Positions 1,615 to 23,384 of a stretch of DNA of 64,000 nucleotides are shown one piece after another. Numbering within the stretch: the first letter of the stretch is position 1; every line of letters starts with the position of its first letter. A program made the position numbers and the translations under genes. The notes beneath the pieces are model-generated. The model ran no database searches and had not been told where the DNA came from. It worked only from the letters and a program-made list of their open reading frames with translations. Source of the stretch: an uncultured bacterium (GTDB lineage Bacteria > Desulfobacterota > BSN033 > UBA1163); contig CALLAL010000012.1 in the NCBI GenBank assembly GCA_938002255.1, forward strand, positions 41,456-105,455. Reading direction: 5' to 3'.

Positions 1615-2301
1615 ATGGAATACCTGCTCGGAGCAACCAGGCTAAGCAAAAGAAAACCTTTAAGGGAATTGGTCTATGAGTCTCTCAAAAAGTCCATCCT
1701 TCATGGGAAAGTGAAAGCAGGACAGCGATTGATTGAAGAGACACTCGCTCAACAGGTGGGCATTAGTCGAACCCCTGTCCGAGAAGCCTTTTACAAACTC
1801 GAACGGGACGATCTTGTCTCCCGGCTACCCAAGGGGGGATTTGCAGTAAGAGAATTCACCAAGGAGGATGTTGAGGAGATTTTCGGCATTCGAATCGCCC
1901 TTGAAAGTTATGCGGCTTACCTCGCGACCCTCCACATCACTCCAGACAAGATCTCTGCCCTTGAGAAGAAGATTGATGAATCGGAGCAAGCCCTGAAGCG
2001 GGGAGAGGATGACAAGGTGATTCAACTCCACACGGAGTTCCATGATCTTCTTTATAAATCCTCCAAGAGCAAAAAATTAACCGAAATGATTAACAATTTT
2101 CGGGACTATTTTTATCGGTATCGTTCGGCCCTCCTTCGCGCCCCGAACGGTTATAAGACATCGATCACAGGCCATCGACGAATGTTGGAAGCGATGAAGA
2201 AGAAGAATGCACGAGAGGTTGAACGATTGGTGAGGGAGCATCTCGAAAAAGGAAGAGAGATTGTCCTCAATGAAATCGATCAGGGAAGAATGATTCCTTG
2301 A
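1615..2301 (+). CDS. GntR-family transcriptional regulator (FadR/FCD subfamily)
   Basis: N-terminal winged HTH (LAQQVGISRTPVREAFYKLE) plus a C-terminal all-helical FCD-like domain; GGAGG RBS. Confidence 0.85.
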   Translation: MEYLLGATRLSKRKPLRELVYESLKKSILHGKVKAGQRLIEETLAQQVGISRTPVREAFYKLERDDLVSRLPKGGFAVREFTKEDVEEIFGIRIALESYAAYLATLHITPDKISALEKKIDESEQALKRGEDDKVIQLHTEFHDLLYKSSKSKKLTEMINNFRDYFYRYRSALLRAPNGYKTSITGHRRMLEAMKKKNAREVERLVREHLEKGREIVLNEIDQGRMIP

Positions 2302-2359
2302 TCCTTAATGAATGTTGGTTCCCTGATATCAGGTGAGCTGAAATGCCTAACCGAAATGG

Positions 2360-2779
2360 ATGAAAACGAGGAGACCCGTGGAAAAGAAGATTCGTATTTT
2401 AATCGCTAAACCGGGATTGGATGGGCATGATCGTGGGGCGAAAGTCATCGCCCAAGCTCTTCGCGATGCTGGCATGGAAGTGATCTATACCGGACTCCAT
2501 CAAACGATTGATCAAATCATCCAAACAGCAATCCAGGAGGATGTGGACGTCATCGGCCTTTCGGTCATGTCAGGAGCCCATCTTCCCATCTGCGAAAAAT
2601 TGACTCAAAAGATGAAAGAGAAGAATCTGCAGGATATCCTGCTAATCATTGGCGGAGTCATACCTAAACGGGATATCCCTCTTTTGCAGAAGATGGGGGT
2701 TCATGGAATCTTTCCTGGGGGCACTCCATTTGAAGAATCGATCAAATGGATTAAAGAGCATGTTCGTTGCGAAACCTAA
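2360..2779 (+). CDS. Acyl-CoA mutase small subunit, cobalamin-binding domain
   Basis: B12-binding fold: DGHDRG cobalamin-His motif and GLSVMSG; size 139 aa is typical of separate IcmB/HcmB/McmA2-type subunits. Confidence 0.85.
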   Translation: MKTRRPVEKKIRILIAKPGLDGHDRGAKVIAQALRDAGMEVIYTGLHQTIDQIIQTAIQEDVDVIGLSVMSGAHLPICEKLTQKMKEKNLQDILLIIGGVIPKRDIPLLQKMGVHGIFPGGTPFEESIKWIKEHVRCET

Positions 2780-2862
2780 AGTATTAAGCACAAGTCGTAT
2801 CGAATCTTAGGTCATCTAAACCCACTTACCTTTAACGACTTATCCTTGACAAGGAGTCAACC

Positions 2863-4491
2863 ATGGGCGTCGCACGCTATATTAAAAATGAAAAAGATGA
2901 GGTTCTCGATGTGATCTTACAGTCAGGGATTCATATCAAACCGGTTTATACTCAGAAAGATCTGGAGGACATCGGCTTTAATCCCCAGGAGGATTTAGCC
3001 TTACCAGGAGAATATCCGTTCACAAGAGGAATTCACCCGATGGGTTATCGCAGTCGGGAGTGGACTACCCGCCAGTATACTGGCTTTGGCACGCCGGAGG
3101 AAACCAATGAACGATTCAAACTGATGATTTCTCACGGACAGACTGGCCTGAATGTGGCGTTCGATCTTCCAACACAGATGGGGCTTGATTCTGATGATCC
3201 TCTGGCAGAGGGCGAGGTAGGAAGGGTCGGAATGGCTGTCGACTCCTTAAGGGACTTTGAAATCGCTTTTAAGGATATCCCTCTCGATCGAATCGGCGTC
3301 GGGTTGACTATTAATGCCGTGGCAAGCATCATGCTTGCCATGTTTCAAGCCACAGCAGAGAAGTTTGGATTCAAAAAAGACCGGGTCAGCGCAACCCCGC
3401 AAAATGACATCCTGAAAGAAATGATAGGCCGGGGCGCATGGATCTTTCCTGTCCAGCCTGCGGTCCGACTCATCGGAGACACGATCGAATATTCGATGAA
3501 GGAACTCCCCCGCACCAATCCGGTCAGTGTCTGCGGATATCATATCCGGGAGTCAGGATGTTCTCCCGTACAGGAAATAGCCTATGCTTTTCAAATCGCC
3601 AACACCTATATTGAAGAGGTTCTTCAACGAGGTTATGGGATTGATGATTTTGTCAGAGGCTTTACTTTCAATCTCAATGTGTTTGGAAATCTCTGGGAGC
3701 AGGTGGCAAAATTTCGAGCCGCCCGAAAACTCTGGGCAAAAAATTTAAAGGAACGTTATGGAGCCAAGGATAACCGCTCTCTCCTCCTCAGGGGGATTTT
3801 CGGAGGAGGGGGCTACGGAATGACCAAAGCCCAACCGGAAAATAATATTATCCGCGGTGCCTACTATGCCCTTGCCGCTGCACTGGGAGGAGCTCAGACC
3901 ACAGCCCTCTGTTCTTTTGATGAAGCCTATACGATCCCCACTCCGAGGGCAGCCCTTCTCTCTCTCCGAACCTTTCAGATCCTCATGGAAGAGATTGGTC
4001 TTCGAGATACGGTTGATCCATTAGCAGGGTCCTACTTTATCGAAACCCTGACCAAGCAGATGGAAGAGAAGATCGTCGAAGAGATGAAGCGGGTGGACGA
4101 GATGGGAGGCATGATTAAAGCCGTAGAGACCGGATATGTTCAACGAGAAGTCGCCAGACAGGCTTATGAGTTTGAAAAGGGAGTCCAGAAAGGAGAGTTG
4201 ATTAAGGTCGGTGTCAATAAATACACCGAGGGGGAAGAGATGGAGGTGGAACTTCACGAATATCGATGGGAGTCTGCCGAAGAACAGATCAAACGGACCC
4301 AAGCCGTCAGGCGCGAGAGAGAGAATCGAAAAGTGACGCAATTGTTGAAAGAGCTCGAAGGAGCCGCAAAGGCTCAAAAGAATGTGATGCCCTATCTTCT
4401 CGAATGCTGTAAAGCGTACGCAACGGTAGGAGAAATGACCAAGGTCTTTAAAGAAGTCTATGGAGAATTTAAAGAGCCCAGCATCTTCTGA
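2863..4491 (+). CDS. Acyl-CoA mutase large (catalytic, substrate-binding) subunit
   Basis: Methylmalonyl-CoA mutase family N-terminal TIM-barrel motifs (FTRGIHPMGYR, RQYTGFGT, GLNVAFDLPTQ); it lacks its own B12 domain. Confidence 0.85.
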   Translation: MGVARYIKNEKDEVLDVILQSGIHIKPVYTQKDLEDIGFNPQEDLALPGEYPFTRGIHPMGYRSREWTTRQYTGFGTPEETNERFKLMISHGQTGLNVAFDLPTQMGLDSDDPLAEGEVGRVGMAVDSLRDFEIAFKDIPLDRIGVGLTINAVASIMLAMFQATAEKFGFKKDRVSATPQNDILKEMIGRGAWIFPVQPAVRLIGDTIEYSMKELPRTNPVSVCGYHIRESGCSPVQEIAYAFQIANTYIEEVLQRGYGIDDFVRGFTFNLNVFGNLWEQVAKFRAARKLWAKNLKERYGAKDNRSLLLRGIFGGGGYGMTKAQPENNIIRGAYYALAAALGGAQTTALCSFDEAYTIPTPRAALLSLRTFQILMEEIGLRDTVDPLAGSYFIETLTKQMEEKIVEEMKRVDEMGGMIKAVETGYVQREVARQAYEFEKGVQKGELIKVGVNKYTEGEEMEVELHEYRWESAEEQIKRTQAVRRERENRKVTQLLKELEGAAKAQKNVMPYLLECCKAYATVGEMTKVFKEVYGEFKEPSIF

Positions 4492-4499
4492 TGAGGAGA

Positions 4500-4615
4500 A
4501 AATCATAAATTCAAAGCTTGAAACCTGAAATTCGAAGCAATTTTCAAAGGATTGATTTCCAACTGTTCAATTTGTTTCGAATTTCGATATTCCAATTTCG
4601 AATTTTAGAGGGGGT
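4500..4615. promoter_or_regulatory. Array of TTCGAA-containing inverted repeats (candidate operator/promoter) between the mutase and dehydrogenase-hydratase genes
   Basis: GAAATTCGAA, TTTCGAATTTCGA, AATTTCGAATTTT and TTCAAA variants within 115 bp. Confidence 0.35.
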
Positions 4616-4620
4616 GTGTT

Positions 4621-6642
4621 ATGGCATTTACGATGTTTGGTCGGACCATTCGAAAAGTTGGGGTGATAGGTTCAGGAAATATTGGCCCTGATATCGCCCT
4701 CCATTTCAGCCAGAATCTCTACTCCTATGGAGTGCCTGTTGTCATCGTTGATATTGTCCAGGCAGCTCTGGATTCCGGGTCAAAGAAGGCCCAAGCCAAG
4801 ATGGACAAGGCCGCTGAAAAAAAGATTTATAAAAAGGATGTGGCAGAAGCCATCTTCAAAAACATGATCTTCACCACGGACTACAATACACTCAGCGATG
4901 CCGATTTGGTCATTGAAGCCGCCTTTGAGAGTATCGAAGTGAAAGATAAAATTTTTAGCCGATGTGAAGAGGTCTGCCCAAAAACGACGATTTTGGCCTC
5001 CAATACTTCTCATATGGTTCCTGATGACATTTTCAGCAAAATGAAGGATAAAACCAGGTGTTTGGCCATCCACTATTTTTTCCCTGCTGAAAGAAATATG
5101 GCTCTTGAAATCATTCCCGGCACGGAGACAGATCCGGGGTTAGTCGAATATCTAATGAAATTTTATGAGTTCATCGGAAAGGCACCTATCGAGGTAAAAC
5201 CACGATATGGATTTGCTCTGAATCCAATTTTTGAAGGGGTCTTCCTTGCAGCAGCCTTGATGGTCGAAAGAGGGATAGCAAGCGTCAAGCAGGCAGATGC
5301 CATTGTTCAGAAGGCTCTGAGTATGGGGGTAGGACCCTTCACGGCTCATAATCTTGCAGGAGGGAATCCCCTGACCCAGCATGGCTTGATGGGAATGACT
5401 TCAACGATTATGCCCTGGTTCCGTTCACCCAAGATCCTGGATGACCAGGTAAAATCGGGAAAACCTTGGGAGACGGCTGCAAAAGGAGAGACGGTTGAAT
5501 ATTCTCAGGAAATGTATGAGGCAGTGGCAAACTGGGTCATGGGAGCTTACTTTGGAATGGCCTGTGAAATCGTTGAAAGCGGTATTACCAATATCGGCGA
5601 TTTTGAGCTGGGGGTTGATATTGGATTGGTCATGGCGCCGCCTTTTGGACTGATGAACAAGGTTGGAATCAAGAGATCCCTTGAATTAGTCGAGAACTAT
5701 GCAAAGGAAAATCCTGGATTTAAAGTAGCTGACCTTCTGGTTAAACAGGCAGCTTCAGAAAAACCTTGGAGGATTCCCGTTGTCCTCCGAATGGATAGAG
5801 GAGAAGTGGCTATCATCAAGATACGTCGTCCCAAAGTTCTTAATGCGCTCAATGAAGATGTTTTCGAACAACTGAGAGAGACCTTCACAGAAATTCAGAA
5901 AGATCCAAAGATCAAAGGGGCGATTCTCACTGGCTTCGGAACAAGGGCCTTTGTCTCAGGCGCAGATATTGGAATGTTGGCGGCTCAAAAAACGGCTGAG
6001 GAAGCGGAGAAGGCCTGCCTGAAGAACTACGCAATCCTCGATCTCATTGAAAACCTGGGTAAGCCTGTGGTTTGCGCAATGAATGGCTTGGCCTTTGGCG
6101 GTGGAAATGAGATTGCCATGGCCTGCACCGTTAGGATTGCCAATAAAGGTCAAAAGGTTTTTGTGGCTCAGCCAGAACCGAGACTCGGGTTCATCCCTGG
6201 AGCTGGAGGAACACAGAGGCTTCCAAGGCTGATCGGGATTGAAAAGGCGTGGCCCATCCTTAGAAATGCGAATCCAATCTCATCGGCTCAAGCCAGAGAG
6301 ATTGGCCTGATTCAGGAGGAGGTGGAAGGAGACCTTATTGAAGCAGGCATCCGATGGATAAATGATCTTCTCTCCGGAAAAGTGAAACCACCGACCATGC
6401 CCAAAGGTCCAATTCCCATCCCTTCAACATTACCGGAGGTCGACATCGGTCACTTAAGCAGGAAGATCGACTCCATCCTGCAAAAAGCCATTTTAGAAGG
6501 GGCAAAGACAACCTTGGAGGAAGGGTTGAAACTCGAAGCCAAACTCTTTGGGGAGTGTTTCTATACTCAGGATCGGCAGATTGGGATAGAAAACTTCATG
6601 AAAAACGGCCCCAAGGTCAATGCAAACTTCGTACACCAATAA
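4621..6642 (+). CDS. Bifunctional 3-hydroxyacyl-CoA dehydrogenase (N-terminal) / enoyl-CoA hydratase (C-terminal)
   Basis: N-terminal Rossmann motif VGVIGSGNIGPDIA plus the 3HCDH C-domain; C-terminal crotonase fold (AIIKIRRPKVLNALN...GADI); domain order is reversed relative to FadB. Confidence 0.85.
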   Translation: MAFTMFGRTIRKVGVIGSGNIGPDIALHFSQNLYSYGVPVVIVDIVQAALDSGSKKAQAKMDKAAEKKIYKKDVAEAIFKNMIFTTDYNTLSDADLVIEAAFESIEVKDKIFSRCEEVCPKTTILASNTSHMVPDDIFSKMKDKTRCLAIHYFFPAERNMALEIIPGTETDPGLVEYLMKFYEFIGKAPIEVKPRYGFALNPIFEGVFLAAALMVERGIASVKQADAIVQKALSMGVGPFTAHNLAGGNPLTQHGLMGMTSTIMPWFRSPKILDDQVKSGKPWETAAKGETVEYSQEMYEAVANWVMGAYFGMACEIVESGITNIGDFELGVDIGLVMAPPFGLMNKVGIKRSLELVENYAKENPGFKVADLLVKQAASEKPWRIPVVLRMDRGEVAIIKIRRPKVLNALNEDVFEQLRETFTEIQKDPKIKGAILTGFGTRAFVSGADIGMLAAQKTAEEAEKACLKNYAILDLIENLGKPVVCAMNGLAFGGGNEIAMACTVRIANKGQKVFVAQPEPRLGFIPGAGGTQRLPRLIGIEKAWPILRNANPISSAQAREIGLIQEEVEGDLIEAGIRWINDLLSGKVKPPTMPKGPIPIPSTLPEVDIGHLSRKIDSILQKAILEGAKTTLEEGLKLEAKLFGECFYTQDRQIGIENFMKNGPKVNANFVHQ

Positions 6643-6718
6643 TCTCCTCCTTTTTGAATAAGGGAGGTGAAGGAACCCTCTTTAAAATTCAATCTATTCG
6701 GCACCTGGAGGTAAGGTC

Positions 6719-7702
6719 ATGAAAAGTGCTCTTCGGTTGGTATTTTTTTTATGGGTAGGAATTTCTTTCATGATGGGAATTTCTTCGGCTGAGGCGAAGG
6801 AATGGCCTAAGATTGTCACCATTGGAGGAGCCCCTGTAGGAGGAACAGGATATGTGTATTCAGGGGGATTTGCAAAAGTCCTTCATGAAAAAATGGCCAT
6901 TACGGCTTCCGTCGAAGCCACTGGAGGTCCGGTTCATAATACTCAACTGGTCAACGCGAAGGAAGCCACCTTTGGAGGGGTAAGTGCACCGGCTGTCTAT
7001 GATGGATGGCATGGTCTGGGATGGGCAAAAGGAAAGAAACATCAGGATATCCGAATTATATTTCCAATGTTTAACACTTTCTTTCAAATCTACGCTTTGA
7101 AAAAAAGCGGGGTCAAAGAAGTCCAAGATTTATCTGGAAAGAGTCTCGGGGTCGGTCCGGTGGGAGGAACCTCAGCAATGCTCTGGCCTCAGGTTCTTGA
7201 AACGCTACGGATTAAACCAGGACGGGTGGTGAATGCAAGCTCATCAGATCTCAACTCACAATTAAAAGACGGCCTCCTTGATGCCAATGCTCAAACCGTT
7301 GGGTTACCCTGGTCCCTGATCTCTGAAATCGAGACAACTCATGAGATCAATGTGCTCGGGCTTTCTAAAAAAGAGAGCCAGACGGTGCTTGAAAAGTTTC
7401 CGTTCCTTTCAACCGGCCATATCCCGAAAGGAACTTACAAAACGAATAAAGAGAAAGATATCGAGACCCTCACTTTCTGGAGTTTTTTTATTACTCACAA
7501 GGATATGCCCGATGATTTTATTTATGAAGTCTTAAAAAGAGTTTATGAGAATACAGATATCATGATCGCCACACATAAGTCTGCAAAGGAGACGAAGCCA
7601 GAATATATCGTGTATAGCCCCCTTCCCCTTCACCCGGGAGCCGTCAAATTTTATAAAGAGAAAGGAATCGCCCTGCCAGACAGGTTACTTTCAACCAGAT
7701 AG
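6719..7702 (+). CDS. TRAP transporter solute receptor, TAXI family
   Basis: Signal peptide; size and composition are typical of TAXI (immunogenic-protein family) binding proteins; lies directly upstream of a fused TRAP permease. Confidence 0.75.
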   Translation: MKSALRLVFFLWVGISFMMGISSAEAKEWPKIVTIGGAPVGGTGYVYSGGFAKVLHEKMAITASVEATGGPVHNTQLVNAKEATFGGVSAPAVYDGWHGLGWAKGKKHQDIRIIFPMFNTFFQIYALKKSGVKEVQDLSGKSLGVGPVGGTSAMLWPQVLETLRIKPGRVVNASSSDLNSQLKDGLLDANAQTVGLPWSLISEIETTHEINVLGLSKKESQTVLEKFPFLSTGHIPKGTYKTNKEKDIETLTFWSFFITHKDMPDDFIYEVLKRVYENTDIMIATHKSAKETKPEYIVYSPLPLHPGAVKFYKEKGIALPDRLLSTR

Positions 7703-7744
7703 GCATAGCGATTTTAAACAACGAGCGACCGATACAATTCGTTC

Positions 7745-9667
7745 ATGAATGATCGATCTCCGGAAATCAGTCAAAAATTATGTAAAATCAAGGATCTTGA
7801 AGTTTCCCCTAAAAGAGAATTCCAGGGCCCATTAGCCATCCTTCTTCTGATCATTGGGTTCCTGATGAGTCTTTTTCATATTATCGTCTTGACCTTCACA
7901 CCCATTGACCCCTGGTTCTTTAGAAGCCTCCACGTTGTCTTCGCCGGTATCCTTGTCTTTTCGTTGGTTCCAGGTTGGGGAAAAGTCCCCCAAAATCGCC
8001 CTCATCTCATGGACTATCTATGGATGGCAACCCTCATCCTTCCAGTCGTCTATTTAACTTTTGAATTCGACACATGGGTTTATCGGGTTGGAGTTACCCC
8101 TACTCTTTTAGACACCCTTTTCTCTCTCCTCTTTGTTCTCGGCGTCCTGGAGATGGCACGGCGAACGACAGGGTGGACCCTTACGATCATTTCTGTGTTT
8201 TTCGTCTTCTACGGTTACTTCGGTCCCTATATGCCAGGAATCCTCCAGCATAAGGGGTATAGTTGGCCTCGCATCTTAACCTATCTTTTCAGTTTGGATG
8301 GAATTCTCAGTATTCCCGTCTTCGCTTCAGCCCACTATATCTTCCTTTTTATCCTCTTTGGTGCATTCTTGGACGCGTCCGGCGCAGGTCGTTTCTTCGT
8401 CGATTTCGCGCGATCGATTGCGGGTGGACGCAGAGGAGGTCCTGCAAAGGTCTCCATCGTATCCAGTGCGATGATTGGAACTGCTTCAGGGTCTTCGGTT
8501 GCCAATGTTGTCGTGGATGGAGTATTCAACATTCCTCTGATGAAAGCCAGTGGATTTAAACCGGCCATTGCCGGTGCGATTGAAGCCATGAACTCAGCGG
8601 GTGGACAGATCGTTCCTCCGGTCATGGGGGCAGGTGCCTTTCTTATGGCTGAGATCCTTGGAATCCCCTACTCAAAAATTGCCCTTGCCGCCATTATTCC
8701 AGCGGCCCTCTACTACAGCGCGGCCTACTGGATGATTGACTTTTATTCCGCTCGAATGGGTCTCCTGGGCATGCCCAAACAAGAACTTCCATCTTTCAGG
8801 AAACTTCTAATAGAAAAGGGATATCTACTGGTTCCCCTGCTTGTTCTCCTATATAGTTTGATGGTCCTCCAGCTTTCTCCTTTCCGATCCGCCTTGTGGG
8901 CGACCCTTGTATTGATTGGGTTGAGCGGGTTCAAAAAAGAGACCCGACTCGATTTAAGAAAAATTTTAAAAACCCTTTCCATCGGACCTCGGAGTGCCAT
9001 GGAGATTGCAGCAACCTGTGCAGCCGCTGGCATCATCGTCGGTATCATCTCACAAACAGGATTGGGAATGAAGTTCGCCATGATCATCATCACCTATTCC
9101 AAAGGAAACCTTTTCATGGCTTTGGTTCTTACAATGATCATTGCCATTGTCCTCGGAATGGGCATGCCTACCACTGCCGCCTATGCGATCTCTGCCTCGG
9201 TCCTTCCTCCAGCACTGATCAAACTGGGAGTCCATCCCATTGGCGCCCATCTTTTCATCTTCTATTTCGCCTGCCTTTCTCCCCTCACCCCTCCTTTGGC
9301 AGTGGCTTCCTACGCAGCGGCAGCCATAGCCAATGCAAGAGTCTGGGAGGTTGCCTGGCTTTCAATGAAATTTGCCATCGCAGGATTTATTGTTCCTTAT
9401 ATGTTTGCCTATGGGCCACCTCTTATCCTTGAAGGAGAGGCGGGGGATATTCTGTTTGCACTCATCACTGGGTTGCTCGGAACGATGACCCTTTCCGCCG
9501 CGGTTCAGGGTTGGTTCTGGGGGAATTTAAATTATCTCAAACGAATCTATCTCCTTGCCATGTCGCTTCTTCTCATCAAACCAGGATGGCAGTCAGACCT
9601 CATTGGATTGGGTCTTTTATTCCTTCTACTTCTCGTTCAATATCTCAAAGGCAAAAAAACTTCCTGA
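7745..9667 (+). CDS. TRAP transporter fused 4TM/12TM permease (TAXI-associated)
   Basis: 640-aa polytopic membrane protein with a DctM-like core fused to a DctQ-like N-terminus. Confidence 0.8.
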   Translation: MNDRSPEISQKLCKIKDLEVSPKREFQGPLAILLLIIGFLMSLFHIIVLTFTPIDPWFFRSLHVVFAGILVFSLVPGWGKVPQNRPHLMDYLWMATLILPVVYLTFEFDTWVYRVGVTPTLLDTLFSLLFVLGVLEMARRTTGWTLTIISVFFVFYGYFGPYMPGILQHKGYSWPRILTYLFSLDGILSIPVFASAHYIFLFILFGAFLDASGAGRFFVDFARSIAGGRRGGPAKVSIVSSAMIGTASGSSVANVVVDGVFNIPLMKASGFKPAIAGAIEAMNSAGGQIVPPVMGAGAFLMAEILGIPYSKIALAAIIPAALYYSAAYWMIDFYSARMGLLGMPKQELPSFRKLLIEKGYLLVPLLVLLYSLMVLQLSPFRSALWATLVLIGLSGFKKETRLDLRKILKTLSIGPRSAMEIAATCAAAGIIVGIISQTGLGMKFAMIIITYSKGNLFMALVLTMIIAIVLGMGMPTTAAYAISASVLPPALIKLGVHPIGAHLFIFYFACLSPLTPPLAVASYAAAAIANARVWEVAWLSMKFAIAGFIVPYMFAYGPPLILEGEAGDILFALITGLLGTMTLSAAVQGWFWGNLNYLKRIYLLAMSLLLIKPGWQSDLIGLGLLFLLLLVQYLKGKKTS

Positions 9668-9680
9668 AAGGATATAAGGT

Positions 9681-11228
9681 ATGATTAACGTTGGCGATTG
9701 GATCAAAAAATGGAGCATTCTTCAGCCTTATAAAGAGGCTCTATTTTTTGAGGGTCACCCAATCACCTACCTCCAATTGAACCATCGCATTAACCAGTTA
9801 TCTCATCTCTTCTTAGCCATGGGGATTGGAAGAGGAGACCGCGTGGCTGTTTTACTCTATAACTGTCCTCCTTATCTTGAAATCTTTTTCGCTCTCTCGA
9901 AGATCGGAGCTATTCTCGTTCCTCTTAACTGGAGGCTGGCAGGGCCAGAACTCGAGTTTATCCTTCGAGACAGTGGTTCCCGACTCCTCATCTTTGAGCC
10001 AGAGTTTGAAAAAATGGTCGCTTTGATCCGGTCTCATTTAACCCTCCCCAACGGAAACTACATCTCTGTGGGAGAGCCTCATCCGGATTGGGCGATGGAA
10101 TATGAAGCATCCCTGGCAAGGTATCCCATCGATGAACTTTCCGAGCCTCATAATGCCGGTGATGACGATCCCCATATCATCATGTACACATCCGGGACAA
10201 CGGGGATTCCAAAGGGTGCTGTCCTCTCCCATCGGAAAACCTTCTTTAACGTCCTCAACGCAGACATTGTCTATAATCTTACCTCCAGGGACATCATGAT
10301 CGTTTCCAGGCCTATGTTTCACTCCGGAGGACTTCTGGTAGAGTCCGCCCCTGTTCTCTACAAGGGTGGAACCCTCATTTTAAAGAAAAGATTTCGCCCC
10401 GAAGAAATACTTGAGGCGATTGAACGATATCGTGTAACGATTCTCGAACTGGCCGCTACGGTTTACCAATTCATTTTACAACAATGTGACTTAAGTCGTT
10501 ACGATCTTCGGTCTGTCCGTTGTTACTTCACCGGTGGCGAACGGATTCCAATCTCGTTACTCAAAGAATATGCGCAAAAGGGAATCGTCATCTCTCAAAT
10601 CTTTGGTCAGACCGAAGCCTCCACCATCACCTTTCTCTCCTCTGAAAAAGCGATCGAAAAAATCGGATCTGTAGGCCTTCCTGTCTTTCACGGAGAGGTA
10701 AAAATCGTTAATAAAGAGGGAAAGGAGGTGGGTTCGGATGAGGTAGGAGAAATTATTGTCAAAGGTCCAACCCTGATGAACGGCTACTGGAACCGACCGG
10801 ATCTCACGGCTGAAACGATTCGGGATGGCTGGCTCTATACCGGAGATCTGGCAAAAAAGGACAAAGAAGGGTATGTATATATCGTCGATCGGGAACGGGA
10901 TATGTATATCAGTGGAGGAGAAAATGTCTATCCGGCTGAAATCGAAAAGGTCTTTTTTACTCACCCGAAAATCTTAGACGTAGGAGTCGTCGGGGTTCCA
11001 GATGGAACATGGGGAGAAGTGGGAAAGGCTTACCTTGTCCTTAAGCCAGGCGAAACAATGGAAGCGGAAGAAGCCCTCACCTTTCTTCAGGGAAAGATCG
11101 CCAGATTTAAGATTCCCAAGTACGTAGAGTTTGTAGAAAAACTTCCTAAAACGGCCAGTGGCAAAATTCAAAAATTCATTTTAAAAGAATGGCACCAGTC
11201 GAAGACTAAGTCTGGAGTTTGGAGTTAG
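9681..11228 (+). CDS. AMP-dependent acyl-CoA synthetase/ligase
   Basis: AMP-binding motif YTSGTTGIPKG and the C-terminal lysine region (SGKIQK). Confidence 0.85.
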   Translation: MINVGDWIKKWSILQPYKEALFFEGHPITYLQLNHRINQLSHLFLAMGIGRGDRVAVLLYNCPPYLEIFFALSKIGAILVPLNWRLAGPELEFILRDSGSRLLIFEPEFEKMVALIRSHLTLPNGNYISVGEPHPDWAMEYEASLARYPIDELSEPHNAGDDDPHIIMYTSGTTGIPKGAVLSHRKTFFNVLNADIVYNLTSRDIMIVSRPMFHSGGLLVESAPVLYKGGTLILKKRFRPEEILEAIERYRVTILELAATVYQFILQQCDLSRYDLRSVRCYFTGGERIPISLLKEYAQKGIVISQIFGQTEASTITFLSSEKAIEKIGSVGLPVFHGEVKIVNKEGKEVGSDEVGEIIVKGPTLMNGYWNRPDLTAETIRDGWLYTGDLAKKDKEGYVYIVDRERDMYISGGENVYPAEIEKVFFTHPKILDVGVVGVPDGTWGEVGKAYLVLKPGETMEAEEALTFLQGKIARFKIPKYVEFVEKLPKTASGKIQKFILKEWHQSKTKSGVWS

Positions 11229-11264
11229 GGGTTCAGAGTGTGAATCAATACTCTGAAAGATGCT

Positions 11265-13370: not shown

Positions 13371-13433
13371 CACAAATGGGAACGACTCACACGAATCAGG
13401 CGTTTTCTTGCCATTTGTTATGATTCGTGCCCA

Positions 13434-15295: not shown

Positions 15296-16588
15296 ATGGG
15301 AAAGAGTTTTATGCCAACGATTCGGACAGAAAGAGAACTAAAAAAGGTCCAATTAGAAGGACTTCAATGGACAGTCAATCACGTTTATCAGCATTCTGAA
15401 TTTTATCGGAATCGTTTCGATGAAGCAGGCGTTAAACCCAGACATATCAAATCGCTTAAAGACATTTCAAAACTTCCCTTCACCACAGCCGCCGACCTTC
15501 AGGAGGGGTACCCTTTCCCCTTAAGGTCGGTCCCCTTCGAAAAAATTGTGAGAATTCATGCCTCCTCCGGTACCACAGGGAAAAGGAAAGTGCTCTGTTA
15601 TACCCAGAAAGATATCAGCGACTGGGCAAATATGTTTGCCCGATGTTATGAAATGGCAGGTTTAACCCCAAAAGATCGAGTACAAATTGCTGTAGGTTAC
15701 GGAGTTTGGACAGCGGGGGTTGGATTTCAGTTGGGGTGTGAGCGTCTGGGAGCAATGGCCATACCTGTGGGTCCTGGAAATATTGATATGCAATGCCAAT
15801 TTCTCGAAGATTTTCGACCCACGGTCATCTGCGCTACAGCCTCCATGGCCCTTCTCATGGGTGAAGAGGTTGAAAAGAGAGGGATCAGGGAAAAGATTGG
15901 TTTAAGAAAAGTGATCATGGGTTCAGAGCGTTCGAGTGATGCCATGAGGGCAAGGATGAAGGACCTCCTCGGAGTGGACCATGTCTTTGACATCACAGGC
16001 TTGACAGAACTTTATGGTCCAGGGACCGGTATTGATTGCGACCGTCACGAAGGAATCCATTATTGGGCAGATTACTACATTCTCGAACTCCTTAATCCGG
16101 AAACTCTTCAACCGGTGCCCCCAGGCGAAACCGGTGAAATGGTAGTCACAACGCTCCGGAAAGAGGCCGCCCCTCTCATCCGCTATCGCACTCGGGACCT
16201 TACACGACTGATCCCAAAAAAATGTTCCTGTGGTTCCATTCTCCCCATGCATGACCGACTGCTTGGACGATCAGATGATATGTTTATTATTCGAGCTGTT
16301 AATATCTATCCGGGACAGATTGACCACATTCTCTCAAACACTAAAGGAATAGGCAGCGAATATCAGATACATCTTGATCGAAAAGAGGATGGAAAAGATT
16401 ACATGACCATTAAAGTGGAGCGGGCAGAAGGAGAAACTCCGGATCAAGATGCTGTGTTGGTACAAACCCTTGAATCAGAGATCAAAACGCAGATTCTGGT
16501 AAGCGGAAAGGTAGAAATTGTTGATTACGGCTCTCTTCCCCGCTCGGAGAGAAAGAGCAAACGAGTTTTTGATCACAGAGGAATTTAA
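15296..16588 (+). CDS. PaaK-family aryl-acetate-CoA ligase (phenylacetate/indoleacetate-CoA ligase-like)
   Basis: PaaK/F390-synthetase family: LKDISKLPFTTAADL, SSGTTGKRKV, about 430 aa; a sigma-70-like promoter lies upstream at 15252. Confidence 0.8.
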   Translation: MGKSFMPTIRTERELKKVQLEGLQWTVNHVYQHSEFYRNRFDEAGVKPRHIKSLKDISKLPFTTAADLQEGYPFPLRSVPFEKIVRIHASSGTTGKRKVLCYTQKDISDWANMFARCYEMAGLTPKDRVQIAVGYGVWTAGVGFQLGCERLGAMAIPVGPGNIDMQCQFLEDFRPTVICATASMALLMGEEVEKRGIREKIGLRKVIMGSERSSDAMRARMKDLLGVDHVFDITGLTELYGPGTGIDCDRHEGIHYWADYYILELLNPETLQPVPPGETGEMVVTTLRKEAAPLIRYRTRDLTRLIPKKCSCGSILPMHDRLLGRSDDMFIIRAVNIYPGQIDHILSNTKGIGSEYQIHLDRKEDGKDYMTIKVERAEGETPDQDAVLVQTLESEIKTQILVSGKVEIVDYGSLPRSERKSKRVFDHRGI

Positions 16589-17788: not shown

Positions 17789-17823
17789 TTTTGACAAGCG
17801 TTCTTTACAACGACAGGGCTAAT

Positions 17824-17867
17824 CTGGCGGGGTTATAACCCCGCCAGGCATCTTTATAATTTTTTTT
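17824..17867 (+). terminator. Intrinsic terminator/attenuator hairpin between dctP and dctQ
   Basis: Perfect 9-bp GC-rich stem CTGGCGGGG-TTATAA-CCCCGCCAG followed 12 nt later by a T8 run. Confidence 0.5.
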
Positions 17868-17892
17868 CGAACAACGAAGAGAGATACCCAGC

Positions 17893-18399
17893 ATGGAGAT
17901 TCGAAGGATGCTCAAATGGGATCAGTGGAGTAATCGTTTAAGCCTCTGGTTCAATTGGTTGGGGGCCATTGCCCTTGCCGGGTTAACTGGAATCGCTTGT
18001 GTGAATATGTTGATGCGAATTCTTGGATCCCCCTTCAAGGGAGCCTATGAACTGGTCGGATTTTTCGGCGCTCTCGTGGTGGCTTTGCCCCTTGGTTATG
18101 CTCAGATTAATCGGGCCCACATCGCCGTTGATATTTTAGGCAGGCGTTATTCCAATAAGGCAAAACGCATCATCAATGCCTTCAACGATCTGGTTTGCAT
18201 GAGTCTTTTCCTTCTGGTCGCCTGGCAGAGTTCCGTTTATGCTACAGCTATATGGAAAAGAGGTGAAACATCCGAAACCCTTCGAATCATCTATCATCCT
18301 TTTGTCTATCTGGTCGCTCTCTGCTGCCTCCTTCTTGCCTTTGTCCTGTGTATCAATTTTCTTAAATCGCTTTTCCCCCTAAAGGAGAAAAATAGATGA
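17893..18399 (+). CDS. TRAP transporter small permease, DctQ family
   Basis: 168 aa with 4 transmembrane segments, between dctP and dctM. Confidence 0.8.
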   Translation: MEIRRMLKWDQWSNRLSLWFNWLGAIALAGLTGIACVNMLMRILGSPFKGAYELVGFFGALVVALPLGYAQINRAHIAVDILGRRYSNKAKRIINAFNDLVCMSLFLLVAWQSSVYATAIWKRGETSETLRIIYHPFVYLVALCCLLLAFVLCINFLKSLFPLKEKNR

Positions 18400-19691: not shown

Positions 19692-19710
19692 AGGCTTAAC
19701 GGAGGCGCCG

Positions 19711-20565
19711 ATGAAAAAATTTGACTACCTTAAACCCCAATCCTTGGAGGAAGTCCTTTCCCTGTTGAATCAATTTGGGACTAAGGCAAAATTAATTGGC
19801 GGGGGAACAGATGCGATTGTCATGCAACGGCAGAATAAAATCTCTCCTGATCTTTTTATCTCTCTTCGTGGAATTCCCGGTTTGGATCACATTGAGGGAA
19901 ATGGACTTCTGAAAATTGGAGCAATGGTCACGCACCGAGCCATCGAACAATCCCCTTTAATCAGGGAAAGATTTCCTCTCCTTTCAGAGGCTTCGGGTCT
20001 CCTCGGTTCAGTTCAAATACGGAATGTCGCAACCCTTGGGGGCAATCTCTGTACTGCATCGCCCTCTGCAGAAACGGCACCGCCCCTTCTGGTTTATGAG
20101 GCTGAGGTCCATCTCATCAGTCAGAAGGGAGAAAGAAGAATCCCACTCGAATCATTTTTTCTCGGTCCCGGTGAGACAGCCCTTGAACAGAAAGAGGTGC
20201 TGAAGGAAATCCTCCTCCAACCGCCTCCTCCCAATAGCAGGGGAGCCTATTTGAAATTGGGACGGCGAAAGGCAATGGATCTTGCTGTGGTCAATGTGGC
20301 TGTCCTCTTAACCCTCAATCCCAAAACAGGCATCTGTGAACGAGCTCGAATAGCCTTAGGAGCCGTCGCCCCTACTCCAATCAGAGTGAGAGAGGCTGAG
20401 AACATCATTGAGGGGAATCAGCTTAATGATGAATTGATTCGTAAAGCAGGAGAGATGGCCAAACACACCTGTTCACCTATTTCTGATATCCGGGCTTCAT
20501 CAGAATATCGGAGGGAGATGGTTGGCGTCCTCGTTGAAAAAGCCATCAGGCAGTCTTTAACATAA
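19711..20565 (+). CDS. Xanthine-dehydrogenase-family molybdenum hydroxylase, FAD-binding medium subunit (CoxM-like)
   Basis: FAD_binding_5 motifs (LIGGGTDAIV, ATLGGNLC), 284 aa. Confidence 0.85.
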   Translation: MKKFDYLKPQSLEEVLSLLNQFGTKAKLIGGGTDAIVMQRQNKISPDLFISLRGIPGLDHIEGNGLLKIGAMVTHRAIEQSPLIRERFPLLSEASGLLGSVQIRNVATLGGNLCTASPSAETAPPLLVYEAEVHLISQKGERRIPLESFFLGPGETALEQKEVLKEILLQPPPPNSRGAYLKLGRRKAMDLAVVNVAVLLTLNPKTGICERARIALGAVAPTPIRVREAENIIEGNQLNDELIRKAGEMAKHTCSPISDIRASSEYRREMVGVLVEKAIRQSLT

Positions 20566-20589
20566 CATTTTTGAAAGGAATATCGTACG

Positions 20590-21054
20590 ATGAAACAGAC
20601 CGTGCAATTTAAACTAAATGGGGAATCCATCCAGATCGAGGTAGAACCTCATCTCAGCCTCCTTCAAGTTATCAGAGAAAAGTTAGAACTGACGGGAACC
20701 AAAGAAGGCTGCGGGATGGGAGAATGTGGCGCCTGTACTGTGTTGGTGGATGGGAAAGCAATCAATTCCTGCCTTTTCCCGATTCTGGAGGTAGAGGGAA
20801 AGAGTGTTACAACGATTGAAGGACTGATTGAAGCCGATGGAACGCTCCATCCTCTTCAACGGTCTTTTGTCGAAAACGGAGCCGTTCAATGTGGCTTTTG
20901 TACCCCTGGAATGGTTCTTTCTGCCAAAGCCCTTCTGGATCAACATCCCAAGCCGACGGAGAAACAGATTCGTCTTGCCATCTCAGGAAATCTCTGTCGT
21001 TGCACTGGATATATTCAGATTATCCGGGCCATCCAGGCTGCCAGTGAACAATAG
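20590..21054 (+). CDS. Molybdenum hydroxylase (2Fe-2S)-binding small subunit (CoxS-like)
   Basis: Two [2Fe-2S] motifs CGMGECGAC and CGFCTPG; 154 aa. Confidence 0.9.
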   Translation: MKQTVQFKLNGESIQIEVEPHLSLLQVIREKLELTGTKEGCGMGECGACTVLVDGKAINSCLFPILEVEGKSVTTIEGLIEADGTLHPLQRSFVENGAVQCGFCTPGMVLSAKALLDQHPKPTEKQIRLAISGNLCRCTGYIQIIRAIQAASEQ

Positions 21055-21086
21055 CCGAAGACCATGTTAAGAAACGGAGGGGTAAG

Positions 21087-23384
21087 ATGACAGAGTTTAT
21101 TAATGTTGGGAAACGAATCCCCAAATCAGACGCCCAGGAAAAGGTCACTGGAAAAGCAATCTATATTCAGGATCTTAAAATTCCAGGGATGCTATGGGGA
21201 AAAATCCTTTACAGCCACCATCCCCATGCACGAATTTTGAACATTGATACCTCTGAAGCAGAAAAACTTCCGGGAGTAAAGGCCGTTCTCACAGGGTATA
21301 ATATACCCACGATCAAATTTGGTTTTTACAAAGATAATACTCCACTGAAATCGAATAAAGTGTGTTCCTATCGTGACGAAGTGGCAGCAGTAGCCGCCAT
21401 TGATCCAGACATCGCTGAGGAAGCAATCAATCTCATCAAAGTCGAATATGAACTCCTTCCTCCAGTCTTCGATCCAGAGGAAGCCATGAAGGAAGGGGCT
21501 CCTCTCATTCATGAAGATCATTTGGGCGGGAAGGAGAAAAAACCAACCAATATTCTCAATATCCCTTGGAAACTTGTGGCTGGAGATGTCGAAGAGGGTC
21601 GAAAAAATTCAGACTATGTGGCAGAGAACCGATTCAAAGTGACCTGGGTCACCCACTGCTGTATGGGAACAAGTGGTTGTATCGCTCAATTTGATCCCCG
21701 AGATAATCTTACCATTTACAGCAACACACAGATTCCTTCTCTTGCTCAGCGAGACTTTACAGAAGCCCTTTCCGCGATGGGGCTCCAAGGGAAGAAGGTC
21801 AGACTGATCAAAGCCACCATCGGTGGTGCCTTCGGGAGCAAACTGGACACCTACCCCTATGAATATATTGCTATTCTATTGGCACACCGTACGCGTAAGC
21901 CGGTCAAGATTATTTTTTCTCGGGAGGAGGAATTTTTTGCCACATCTCCCAGACAAGCGGCCATCATTGATATCGCCCAGGGATGTAAAAAGGATGGGAC
22001 CCTGACGTTTAGAGATGTCCGGATGGTTTTGGATAATGGTGCCTATACCTCCTGGGGAGCAACCACTCCTTCGGTAATGATGATGCCCATTTCTTCTCTT
22101 TATAAAGTTCCCCATGTACGATATGTAGCCAAATGTGTTTATACTAACAACACCTATTCCCAGGCATTTCGTGGTTATGGAAATCCTCAAGCCACCTTTG
22201 CTATCGAATCGCAAATCGATTCTCTTGCCGAAATGGCTGGGATTGATCCACTCGACTTCAGATTGAGAAATGCCAACACCCCTGGAGAAGTCACTCCCCA
22301 GCGATTCAAAGTTGGCACCTGTGGTTTAAGAGAATGCATCGATGCAGTGGCTCAGCGATTGGATTGGAGGCAAAATCGAGGGAAACGAGATGGAAGAGGG
22401 GTTGGAATGGCTTCCTTGATTCATGTTGGTGGAGGAGCGCGGGTCTATAAATCAGACGGATGTGGAACCATCATCAAAGTAGATGATTTCGGAACGGTCA
22501 ATGTGATTACCGGCGCTACGGACATGGGACAGGGAGCAGATACGGTCATTGCTCAGATTGTTGCAGAAGAGCTCGGCGTAAGAATCCAGGATGTGGTTGT
22601 GACACACACGGATACAGACATCTGCCCCTGGGATGTCGGAGCCCATGCCAGTCGAACGACCTTTGTGGCGGGGAACTCAGCAAAGATGGCTGCCAAAAAA
22701 GTGAAGGAACAACTTCTCGAAGTCGCTTCCAGATCTCTGGGTGAAGTCCCTGAAAATCTCGAGATTCGAGATCGAATGGTTTTTTCTAAAATCGATCCCG
22801 AGAAGAAATCTCCACTTGGAAAGGTTCTAAGAGCTGCACACTACACCACCGGCGGAAAGATGGTTATGGCGGAGTATTTTTACGATCCCCCTAACGAAAA
22901 CCTGGACAAAGAATTTAAGGGAAATCTTTCTGTGACCTATGCCTATGGGACGCACGGCGTTGAGGTGGAAGTAGATAAAACCACAGGGCAAGTCAACATC
23001 CTAAAATATATCGCTGCCCATGATGTTGGAAGAGCCGTTAATCCCATGCTTTTAGAAGGGCAGGTCTATGGCGGAGCAGCCATGGGAATCGGGTACGCAT
23101 TGATGGAACAGCTTGTCCTTAACAACGGAAAGGTGATCAATCCTGATTTCAGGGATTATAAAATCCTCACGGCTTCGGATATCCCAACTATCGAAGCCAT
23201 CACGATCGAAACGGACGACCCCTTTGGTCCTTTTGGAGCCAAAGGGATTGGAGAACCAGGTCTGGTTCCAACGGCCCCCGCCATTGCGAATGCCATTTAT
23301 GATGCCATCGGAGTGAGGATTAAGGATCTTCCCATCACCCCTGAAAAGATTTTGGCCGCCCTAAAAGGGAAAGATTCCAAATAA
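21087..23384 (+). CDS. Molybdenum hydroxylase molybdopterin-binding large subunit (CoxL-like)
   Basis: 765 aa with aldehyde oxidase / xanthine dehydrogenase a/b hammerhead and MoCo-binding domains. Confidence 0.9.
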   Translation: MTEFINVGKRIPKSDAQEKVTGKAIYIQDLKIPGMLWGKILYSHHPHARILNIDTSEAEKLPGVKAVLTGYNIPTIKFGFYKDNTPLKSNKVCSYRDEVAAVAAIDPDIAEEAINLIKVEYELLPPVFDPEEAMKEGAPLIHEDHLGGKEKKPTNILNIPWKLVAGDVEEGRKNSDYVAENRFKVTWVTHCCMGTSGCIAQFDPRDNLTIYSNTQIPSLAQRDFTEALSAMGLQGKKVRLIKATIGGAFGSKLDTYPYEYIAILLAHRTRKPVKIIFSREEEFFATSPRQAAIIDIAQGCKKDGTLTFRDVRMVLDNGAYTSWGATTPSVMMMPISSLYKVPHVRYVAKCVYTNNTYSQAFRGYGNPQATFAIESQIDSLAEMAGIDPLDFRLRNANTPGEVTPQRFKVGTCGLRECIDAVAQRLDWRQNRGKRDGRGVGMASLIHVGGGARVYKSDGCGTIIKVDDFGTVNVITGATDMGQGADTVIAQIVAEELGVRIQDVVVTHTDTDICPWDVGAHASRTTFVAGNSAKMAAKKVKEQLLEVASRSLGEVPENLEIRDRMVFSKIDPEKKSPLGKVLRAAHYTTGGKMVMAEYFYDPPNENLDKEFKGNLSVTYAYGTHGVEVEVDKTTGQVNILKYIAAHDVGRAVNPMLLEGQVYGGAAMGIGYALMEQLVLNNGKVINPDFRDYKILTASDIPTIEAITIETDDPFGPFGAKGIGEPGLVPTAPAIANAIYDAIGVRIKDLPITPEKILAALKGKDSK

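Follow-up and report, generated by a model that had tools for sequence, protein, structure and literature searches.

Indoleacetate is formed from tryptophan wherever protein ferments, as in guts, digesters and sediments, and is also the main plant auxin. To our knowledge, its anaerobic removal has been studied in only two denitrifiers. The iaa cluster of Aromatoleum is said, in a 2012 abstract, to include a xanthine-oxidase-family molybdenum (Mo) enzyme and a fusion of a hydratase with a 3-hydroxyacyl-CoA dehydrogenase. The hydantoinase-like IaaCE (707 + 564 amino acids, aa) is part of the induced Aromatoleum cluster (PMC8453981). IaaF, the decarboxylating benzylmalonyl-CoA dehydrogenase, carries a GGG motif specific to its subclass, all members of which are found in iaa operons; an ETF paralogue is part of the iaa operons predicted in strict anaerobes (Desulfatiglans anilini, other sulfate reducers, Ferroglobus placidus); and the phenylsuccinyl-CoA isomers hydrolyse quickly (PMC8360864). 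The present analysis concerns a 64-kb stretch of DNA from an uncultured Thermodesulfobacteriota bacterium, referred to as the window and equivalent to positions 39550-103549 of the 119.8-kb metagenome contig ERZ6864144. A cluster of 16 genes at 1615-23384 of the window probably constitutes one GntR-controlled operon for the upper part of the anaerobic indoleacetate (iaa-type) pathway.

The 16 open reading frames (ORFs) of the cluster are co-directional on the + strand (Table 1), and the stored gene calls of contig ERZ6864144 give the same number. An earlier interpretation, made from the letters alone and called here the sequence-only reading, had counted 20 co-directional, tightly spaced genes; the common direction and the close spacing hold but the count does not, and inspection of the gaps between the 16 genes across 1615-23384 found no further plausible ORFs. 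The intergenic distances are 13-129 nt, with a single 4-nt overlap. Each of the 16 products was assigned to a family with Pfam and NCBIfam, and all the protein families named in the sequence-only reading were found where it had placed them, on the + strand. The cluster is well bounded by the genes on its two sides: DUF434, glutaredoxin, UvrA and ABC genes upstream, and PAS/GAF histidine kinases followed by a type II secretion/type IV pilus-like block downstream. The arrangement is not a product of chance; the order of the core genes recurs in most of 80 related loci.

These loci come from a scan of one genome per species, in which 345 loci encode a HyuA relative. Synteny was derived from the best 80 by tBLASTn of the window proteins and by clustering of all ORFs in the related loci. 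In the best 80 of the 345, HyuA is 78-86% identical to that of the window, and all 80 belong to metagenome-assembled genomes (MAGs) labelled Syntrophorhabdus, Syntrophaceae, Syntrophales, Desulfobacteraceae or "Deltaproteobacteria". Most loci that are long enough to judge keep a core consisting of GntR, the small and large mutase subunits, HyuA, HyuB, the PaaK-like ligase, a transporter and the three subunits of the Mo enzyme.

The commonest extra gene beside this core encodes an acyl-CoA dehydrogenase of ~385 aa, sometimes in two tandem copies. Every sister-locus dehydrogenase with an intact C-terminus has LL[YFS]GGGT[SH]E in place of the family's usual YEG. The sister loci also hold a family III CoA transferase (IaaL-like), MeaB (261 bits; cut-off, 241), ETF alpha and beta, and FixC. 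This gene set matches the published account of the iaa operons predicted for strict anaerobes (PMC8360864), and thus the family to which the window's cluster belongs is the iaa family. The proteins shared by the window and the IaaF-bearing clusters are close relatives: the mutase is 71-94% identical across sister clusters (tBLASTn), the PaaK-family ligase 69-88% and HyuA 78-86%. In the window, all the iaa enzyme classes except IaaF, IaaL and thiolase are found in one tight co-directional block. The iaa-type assignment made in the sequence-only reading therefore gains support from two sides, from the IaaF-type GGG dehydrogenases of the sister loci and from the failure of rival families at their curated cut-offs; PaaK, caprolactamase, isobutyryl-CoA mutase and CO dehydrogenase, any of which would have spoken for a different function, all score below cut-off (see below). 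NCBIfam contains no model specific to Iaa proteins, and literature searches for iaa clusters of Syntrophorhabdus or Syntrophaceae, or for other accounts of the pathway, yielded only PMC8360864.

The related loci show more than one architecture. Co-occurrence was counted within ±10 kb in 48 informative loci, those that include the mutase gene and extend over more than 7 kb 5' of hyuA. Of these 48, 18 encode the acyl-CoA dehydrogenase inside that range. The dehydrogenase/hydratase fusion found in the window and the IaaF-like dehydrogenase are never together: 17 loci have only the fusion, 18 only the IaaF-like gene, and 13 neither. The AMP-forming ligase, present in 14 of the 48 loci, and the IaaL-like family III CoA transferase, present in 20, overlap in a single locus (ligase only, 13; transferase only, 19; neither, 15). 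Since the fusion and IaaF act at consecutive steps, the simplest explanation is that each architecture keeps a part of the pathway elsewhere in the genome. The window is of the fusion-plus-ligase type, whose members also have the neighbouring DUF434 and UvrA genes in common; the arrangement is thus one that was inherited vertically within a single clade.

The acyl-CoA mutase is a split B12 enzyme. Its small subunit shows the motifs DGHDRG (the DxHxxG cobalamin motif), SxL and GG. The best PDB match of the large subunit is HcmA (4R3U, 482 bits), followed by human methylmalonyl-CoA mutase (MCM, 378 bits). A Tyr in RQYTGF and an Arg in IGRGAWIFP match the carboxylate-binding pair of MCM. In such mutases the Tyr/Arg pair binds the free carboxylate of a succinyl- or malonyl-type substrate; the MCM-type residues of the window enzyme thus point to a substrate with a free carboxylate, as an arylsuccinyl-CoA/benzylmalonyl-CoA mutase would need. 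Equivalents of Ile90 and Asp117 of HcmA are missing, and an Ala (in NVAFD) occupies the position of HcmA's specificity Asp. An isobutyryl-CoA mutase (ICM) or a 2-hydroxyisobutyryl-CoA mutase (HCM) was rejected because neither the Phe/Gln of the former nor the Ile/Asp of the latter is at the specificity positions; a fused isobutyryl-CoA mutase because the IcmF model gives 243 bits against a cut-off of 1500; and a generic methylmalonyl-CoA mutase because the MCM equivalog gives 461 against 876. The assignment proposed from these alignments is an IaaGH-like arylsuccinyl-CoA/benzylmalonyl-CoA mutase.

The gene for the dehydrogenase/hydratase fusion lies directly 3' of the mutase gene in the 23 loci of the window's type. 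Both hydratase glutamates of the fusion enzyme are intact (GGGNEIA, QPEPRLG). A variant in which its ECH domain acts as a malonyl-type decarboxylase replacing IaaF was rejected, since both glutamates are intact and an acyl-CoA dehydrogenase would still be needed.

The large subunit of the Mo enzyme matches best, over residues 6-763, the alpha subunit of 4-hydroxybenzoyl-CoA reductase (4-HBCR; 1RM6_A, 448 bits; next match, 299), and a Glu aligns, in GAKGIGEPG, with a Glu of the C-terminal segment of 4-HBCR. As 4-HBCR is an aryl-CoA enzyme, a CoA-thioester substrate is suggested. The FAD subunit (284 aa) is best matched by CutM (150 bits; HcrB only 71), and its alignment shows no Cys-rich 4Fe-4S insertion. 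A true 4-HBCR was rejected: all three equivalog cut-offs are missed (alpha, TIGR03194, 631 vs 995; beta, 127 vs 405; gamma, 170 vs 258 bits) and the 4Fe-4S loop is missing from the FAD subunit. The missed cut-offs, together with an ordinary CoxM-type flavoprotein that has no such loop, make an oxidative hydroxylase likelier than a ferredoxin-driven reductive dehydroxylase. The aerobic CO dehydrogenase CoxL was also rejected (336 vs 991 and 386 vs 950 bits). The enzyme is proposed to be the C2-hydroxylase of indoleacetyl-CoA (or indoleacetate).

Across the related loci the Mo large subunit is 55-86% identical (tBLASTn), and its flavoprotein partner occurs in two forms. The short, CoxM-like form of 284-297 aa is found in the window, in loci L005 and L027, and in Desulfobacteraceae loci. 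The long form of 323-337 aa (L076, 15318-16292; L030, 18275-19273), found in most sister clusters, has a ~24-residue insertion with three Cys and a C-terminal extension. Locus L030 has the window's architecture and a Mo subunit that is 84% identical, but its FAD subunit is of the long form and only 47% identical. Such comparisons suggest that the flavoprotein subunit has been exchanged among clusters.

Two further sets of genes touch on Mo enzymes. One is in the window, ~24 kb downstream of the hydroxylase genes: five genes on the - strand (47120-51086) encode XdhC (47120-48202), an unassigned 192-aa ORF, YqeC (48793-49629), an unassigned 283-aa ORF and a MobA-like nucleotidyltransferase (50493-51086). 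This block looks like a set of genes for maturing xanthine-dehydrogenase-family enzymes and inserting their cofactor, and its products may act on the cluster's hydroxylase. The other is a second Mo enzyme beside the iaa-like cluster in several sister genomes (L056, 19363-22097; L076, 1-2366; L022, 1-2020; L057, 510-3961). Its FAD subunit has the full-length Cys-rich 4Fe-4S loop of the 4-HBCR beta type, and scores 198-239 bits against the cut-off of 405. A reductive step on the pathway product, for example the deamination of 2-aminobenzoyl-CoA, for which we know of no identified enzyme, is a speculative role for it.

The PaaK-family ligase contains the SSGTTGK motif. In most of the loci compared, its gene follows that for HyuB, either directly or with a few genes in between. 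Besides the close sister-cluster relatives, there are three distant matches of 31-55% identity. The ligase scores 417 bits with the PaaK equivalog (TIGR02155), below the cut-off of 646, and is equidistant from 4R1L and PaaK1 (2Y27), at 352 bits each. It was hence rejected as a bona fide PaaK, being a PaaK relative instead, and is proposed to be an IaaB-like indoleacetate-CoA ligase. The AMP-forming ligase resembles feruloyl-, fatty-acyl- and o-succinylbenzoate (OSB)-CoA ligases; its best PDB matches are 8WEU/8WEV (378 bits), and OSB-CoA ligase gives 282. Activation of the ring-opened dicarboxylate is the role proposed for it. As to the transporters, the DctPQM system is predicted to take up the organic-acid substrate; in some sister clusters it is replaced by a branched-chain-type ABC system. 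The TAXI-TRAP system is found in just one independent related locus, L031.

Both phosphate-binding motifs, DxGGTxTD and DxGGT, are present in HyuA. The sizes of the two subunits (HyuA, 701 aa; HyuB, 579-586 aa) are near those of IaaC (707 aa) and IaaE (564 aa) (PMC8453981). With the caprolactamase models (NF050156/NF050157), HyuA scores 544 bits (CapA) and HyuB 257 (CapB), both under cut-offs of 1000, and a caprolactamase CapAB was rejected. With the acetophenone carboxylase models, the scores are 322 (ApcC) and 210 bits for HyuA and 130 for HyuB. HyuA and HyuB are proposed to be the IaaC-like and IaaE-like subunits, respectively, of a 2-oxoindoleacetate(-CoA) lactamase.

HyuA has at least 120 relatives at 82-93% identity, the named ones being from Syntrophaceae or Thermodesulfobacteriota MAGs. 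Despite hundreds of relatives at 78-93%, a search among 50%-identity representatives found none above 50%, the best being a Hydrogenophaga protein at 49%. The HyuAB family diverges very slowly within the Thermodesulfobacteriota and drops sharply in identity outside them. Two more distant HyuA proteins were tried and rejected as links to the denitrifier system: a 707-aa relative, considered as IaaC, belongs to a Hyphomicrobiaceae/Burkholderiales family, and the top representative, from Hydrogenophaga sp. BPS33, is encoded among TctC, PrpD-like and LysR genes and not in an iaa cluster. A plasmid collection searched with HyuA and the IaaF-like protein yielded no plasmid-borne iaa cluster; the best matches were a rhizobial protein 45% identical to HyuA and, for the IaaF-like protein, a generic acyl-CoA dehydrogenase (42%).

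One relative is set in different surroundings. Locus L004/L016 (contig_3974 of MAG MFD04408.bin.3.38, 200-13928) encodes a HyuA and a HyuB that are 83% and 87% identical to those of the window, a second HyuA, and an AMP ligase (67%). The neighbouring genes encode a thiolase, an OB-fold DUF35-type protein, an acetyl-CoA hydrolase/transferase and a succinyl-CoA synthetase; the surrounding 10 kb encode neither a mutase nor a PaaK-type ligase nor a Mo enzyme.

The following pathway is built from family membership and from the Aromatoleum pathway (PMC8360864, PMC8453981). Indoleacetate would be imported by the DctPQM TRAP transporter and converted to indoleacetyl-CoA by the PaaK-family ligase. The Mo hydroxylase would then add a water-derived hydroxyl at the pyrrole C2, giving the 2-oxo (lactam) form, and the electrons would exit via the 2Fe-2S clusters and FAD. 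HyuAB would hydrolyse the lactam in an ATP-dependent manner, producing (2-aminophenyl)succinyl-CoA or the free acid. At this stage a thioester is needed on the carboxyl adjoining the aryl-bearing carbon. For the mutase to act, the CoA ester made by the first ligase would sit on the wrong one of the two carboxyls of (2-aminophenyl)succinate, and a correction is therefore required: by the intramolecular CoA transferase IaaL in Aromatoleum or, possibly, by the AMP-forming ligase here, which is a candidate to activate or reactivate the dicarboxylate. The TAXI-TRAP system may import or salvage this dicarboxylate. The B12 mutase would rearrange the thioester to (2-aminobenzyl)malonyl-CoA, and an IaaF-type decarboxylating acyl-CoA dehydrogenase, encoded elsewhere in the genome, would convert this to 2-aminocinnamoyl-CoA. 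Hydration and oxidation by the dehydrogenase/hydratase fusion, followed by cleavage by a thiolase encoded elsewhere, would yield 2-aminobenzoyl-CoA and acetyl-CoA.

For the window, a distinct branch of the anaerobic auxin pathway that dispenses with IaaL can be put forward tentatively, and is more doubtful than probable: once the lactam is open, the labile (2-aminophenyl)succinyl thioester hydrolyses, or the free dicarboxylate is imported by TAXI-TRAP; the AMP ligase then regiospecifically reactivates the carboxyl required by the mutase, at the cost of ATP; and the short CoxM-type flavoprotein pairs with a different electron acceptor.

The cluster appears to be expressed from a sigma-70-type promoter read upstream of gntR, the gene that opens the cluster in most of the related loci long enough to include this end. 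A TTGACA...TATAAA arrangement is kept 5' of gntR in ~20 closely related loci. The general promoter consensus scan did not pick out this promoter, and generic promoter and terminator scans of the window gave no more matches than shuffled sequence; the promoter is trusted because it is conserved across loci and not because of the generic scan. The palindrome TGGATACTGTATACA lies directly 3' of the -10 box, and at the same position ~20 related loci of the close clade have TGGATAC(A/T)GTATACA. Its 8-mer core, TGTATACA, occurs twice in 64 kb against 0.14 expected occurrences. The palindrome is probably the operator of the GntR/FCD repressor and overlaps the transcription start; both the binding and the effector are predicted. 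The GntR/FCD protein would repress the operon at this site.

Two elements inside the cluster could also affect expression. An AT-rich inverted repeat of reiterated GAAATTCGAA-like units occupies the 129-nt gap between the mutase and the dehydrogenase/hydratase genes, and could be an internal regulatory site. A GC-rich hairpin 3' of dctP is the top terminator-like match, the total of such matches in the window being not above shuffle expectation; it may act as an attenuator or stabilise the mRNA. The window gave no match in Rfam or tRNA scans, hence no B12 riboswitch.

Table 1. Genes and sequence elements of the iaa-type cluster, in window coordinates
Feature	Positions	Strand	Basis
Sigma-70-type promoter: TTGACA (1534-1539), 17-nt spacer, TATAAG (1557-1562)	1534-1562	+	Read from sequence, upstream of gntR
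Operator-like palindromic element TGGATACTGTATACA	1569-1583	unassigned	Directly 3' of -10 box; cross-locus conservation
GntR-family regulator with FCD ligand-binding domain, 228 aa	1615-2301	+	Pfam GntR 58 bits, FCD 98 bits
B12-binding small subunit of acyl-CoA mutase, 139 aa	2360-2779	+	Pfam B12-binding; TIGR00640 159 bits (cut-off 57)
Acyl-CoA mutase large (substrate-binding) subunit, 542 aa	2863-4491	+	MM_CoA_mutase 605 bits
AT-rich imperfect inverted repeat, two 37-nt arms, 73% complementary	4507-4605		Repeat search; sequence read
3-Hydroxyacyl-CoA dehydrogenase (N-terminal)/enoyl-CoA hydratase (C-terminal) fusion, 673 aa	4621-6642	+	Pfam 3HCDH_N, 3HCDH, ECH_1
TAXI-family TRAP solute-binding protein, 327 aa	6719-7702	+	TIGR02122 221 bits (cut-off 84)
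TAXI-TRAP fused permease, 640 aa	7745-9667	+	TIGR02123 640 bits (cut-off 321)
AMP-forming acyl-CoA ligase, 515 aa	9681-11228	+	Pfam AMP-binding
HyuA-type ATP-binding subunit, hydantoinase/oxoprolinase family, 701 aa	11265-13370	+	Pfam Hydant_A_N, Hydantoinase_A, Hydant_A_C
HyuB-type subunit, 586 aa from TTG (579 aa from the contig gene caller's start, 13455)	13434-15194	+	Pfam Hydantoinase_B 502 bits
PaaK-family aryl-acetate-CoA ligase, 430 aa (alternative start 15311)	15296-16588	+	Pfam AMP-binding, AMP-binding_C_2
DctP-type TRAP solute-binding protein, 364 aa	16694-17788	+	Pfam DctP; NF037995 110 bits (cut-off 50)
GC-rich hairpin, 11 pairs, then T-rich tail	17823-17848	+	3' of dctP; top terminator-like match
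DctQ small TRAP membrane subunit, 168 aa	17893-18399	+	Pfam DctQ
DctM large TRAP membrane subunit, 431 aa	18396-19691	+	Pfam DctM 269 bits
FAD-binding medium subunit, xanthine-dehydrogenase-family Mo enzyme, CoxM/XdhB type, 284 aa	19711-20565	+	Pfam FAD_binding_5, CO_deh_flav_C
2x[2Fe-2S] small subunit of Mo enzyme, 154 aa	20590-21054	+	Pfam Fer2, Fer2_2
Molybdopterin-binding large subunit of Mo enzyme, 765 aa	21087-23384	+	Pfam Ald_Xan_dh_C, MoCoBD_1, MoCoBD_2

Several points weigh against the assignment of the cluster to the indoleacetate pathway. Neither the window nor the 83 kb of its contig covered (the window with 10-kb flanks on each side) encodes IaaF, IaaL, MeaB, ETF or thiolase, and the pathway as written needs genes that are not seen on this genome's contig. 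The statement in the sequence-only reading that no acyl-CoA dehydrogenase or CoA transferase is visible is accurate for the whole 64-kb window and for both 10-kb flanks; for IaaL in particular, tblastn with a sister-locus IaaL-like protein finds nothing in the window, and no CoA_transf_3 protein appeared in any Pfam scan. The Aromatoleum Iaa proteins were compared by description, so that orthology would rest on the IaaF motif of the sister loci and on gene content; the substrate, too, is deduced solely from which genes are present. Whether CoA activation or hydroxylation comes first is reportedly not settled for Aromatoleum itself (2012 and 2016 papers). Finally, high HyuAB identity alone does not fix the pathway, given the setting of locus L004/L016.

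The same chemistry could serve another (hetero)aryl-acetate or N-heterocyclic acid that is hydroxylated next to the N, lactam-opened and rearranged as a substituted succinyl-CoA; oxindole-3-acetate, another indole-3-alkanoate, and pyridyl- or imidazolyl-acetate are examples. Nothing in the sequence fixes the substrate, and the ligase is both under the PaaK cut-off and equidistant from two solved PaaK-type enzymes. IaaF is missing from the 83 kb of contig seen in the window's architecture, and the complete separation of fusion and IaaF (17 vs 18 loci) could mark two substrate-specific versions of the cluster. This separation is, however, equally explained by genes placed elsewhere, since the two enzymes act at consecutive steps, and the high identity of HyuA, mutase and ligase to those of IaaF-bearing clusters speaks for identical reactions and for a substrate that is the same or closely similar. 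A substrate of this other kind is considered rather improbable, and indoleacetate is preferred.

Two other explanations give the cluster a different chemistry altogether. HyuAB might be an ATP-dependent carboxylase of the acetone/acetophenone type, in a cluster for a ketone or phenolic compound. It does score on the acetophenone carboxylase subunit models (HyuA, 322 bits; HyuB, 130), and the HyuA-HyuA-HyuB set of L004 stands with genes for thiolase, CoA transferase and succinyl-CoA synthetase, as might be expected if the product were a beta-keto acid. The lactamase models score higher, however (CapA, 544; CapB, 257), and the cluster has no gene for a small gamma or epsilon subunit. Were HyuAB a carboxylase, moreover, the Mo hydroxylase, the PaaK-type ligase and the mutase would make no sense together, and the IaaF-type genes of the sister loci would be left unexplained. 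A carboxylase is very unlikely. The cluster might also be a mosaic, in which a 4-HBCR and an aryl-acid ligase for hydroxyphenylacetate or hydroxybenzoate metabolism happen to stand beside beta-oxidation genes and a methylmalonyl-CoA mutase of the generic kind. The degradation of phenolic compounds is known among Syntrophorhabdus relatives, the best match of the Mo large subunit is the 4-HBCR alpha subunit, and the mutase residues are of the MCM type, all of which would fit. Against this, the three 4-HBCR models are missed, the beta subunit has no 4Fe-4S loop, the MCM equivalog is missed (461 vs 876), and dozens of genomes keep the whole block together, headed by one conserved promoter and operator, which makes a mosaic extremely unlikely. 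The upper indoleacetate pathway is the preferred reading of the cluster.

The rest of the window carries genes of other kinds. Directly 3' of the cluster, at 23633-29636 (+), three genes encode a 1249-aa hybrid histidine kinase with several PAS domains and one GAF domain, another kinase whose N-terminus is a receiver domain, and a receiver protein that stands alone. The hybrid kinase has no homologue in those related loci whose sequence continues beyond the gene for the Mo subunit, and a link to the cluster is therefore doubtful. The type II secretion/type IV pilus-like genes at 29731-42355 (+) encode T2SSF, several prepilin-type N-methylation proteins, a PilM-PilN fusion, a secretin, an AAA ATPase, a TPR protein and a T2SSE ATPase, and two further prepilin-like genes are at 46215-47036 (-). 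At 51822-57153 (+) are a 501-aa multihaem c-type cytochrome, a superoxide-dismutase-like protein and a 722-aa bis-pyranopterin guanine dinucleotide (bis-PGD) molybdopterin oxidoreductase with an Fe4S4 domain; these are respiratory/redox genes unrelated to the cluster.

Several dozen species-level genomes at the least, and perhaps as many as 345, carry the pathway core; they belong to syntrophic and sulfate-reducing Thermodesulfobacteriota and show several architectures. This spread points to these organisms as anaerobic auxin sinks. The loci offer candidates for three uncharacterised enzymes, the Mo hydroxylase, the HyuAB lactamase and the mutase, and the near mutual exclusivity of the AMP ligase and IaaL hints that the CoA-regiochemistry problem may be solved in another way. 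Of modest novelty are the broad occurrence among syntrophs, the pattern of ligase for transferase and the swapping of the flavoprotein.

Enzyme by enzyme, the cluster can be set against systems of known function. Its mutase resembles HcmAB in having split large and small subunits, HcmA being its best PDB match, and resembles MCM in the Tyr and Arg that hold the substrate carboxylate; it differs from both, scoring below the MCM equivalog and having no equivalents of HcmA's Ile90 and Asp117. A MeaB chaperone gene is not in the window, though it is in sister loci. The Mo enzyme shares with HcrABC of Thauera aromatica (1RM6) the three-subunit Mo/FAD/2Fe-2S layout and, probably, the binding of an aryl-CoA, but all its subunits are below the equivalog cut-offs and the Cys-rich 4Fe-4S insertion of the FAD subunit is missing. 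HyuAB has the two-subunit HyuA/HyuB organisation and both actin-like ATP-binding motifs of caprolactamase CapAB, 5-oxoprolinase and N-methylhydantoinase, which also supply its best curated model matches. It differs from CapAB in reaching only about half (HyuA) and a quarter (HyuB) of the cut-offs, and in a gene context of aromatic acid and CoA-ester metabolism.

As a whole, the cluster is most readily compared with iaaABCDEFGHIJKLMPQR of A. aromaticum EbN1 and A. (Azoarcus) evansii KB740, which leads to 2-aminobenzoyl-CoA. The shared classes are IaaB, IaaCE, IaaGH, a solute-binding-dependent uptake system (IaaM) and a regulator (PMC8360864, PMC8453981). The window is without IaaF, IaaL (phenylsuccinyl-CoA transferase) and thiolase in 83 kb of contig, and adds an AMP-forming ligase and a TAXI-TRAP importer. 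The hosts differ as well, Aromatoleum being a denitrifying betaproteobacterium and the window's host a strictly anaerobic Thermodesulfobacteriota MAG. The iaa operons predicted for strict anaerobes (Desulfatiglans anilini, strain NaphS2, Desulfocarbo indianensis, Ferroglobus placidus; Schuhle et al. 2016/2021) come, in their bacterial examples, from the same phylum setting. They are matched by the sister loci L056, L064, L065, L070 and L022, in which one or more IaaF orthologues and ETF stand beside the mutase, HyuAB, ligase and Mo enzyme. In the window's type, the fusion takes the place of the IaaF/IaaL/MeaB/ETF block, accompanied in 14 of the 48 loci by the AMP ligase; and the window's Mo enzyme has the short CoxM-type flavoprotein (284 aa), whereas that of most other sister clusters is 323-337 aa. 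The cluster is a variant architecture of a pathway already described in denitrifiers and predicted in strict anaerobes, and leaves the current understanding of that pathway standing.

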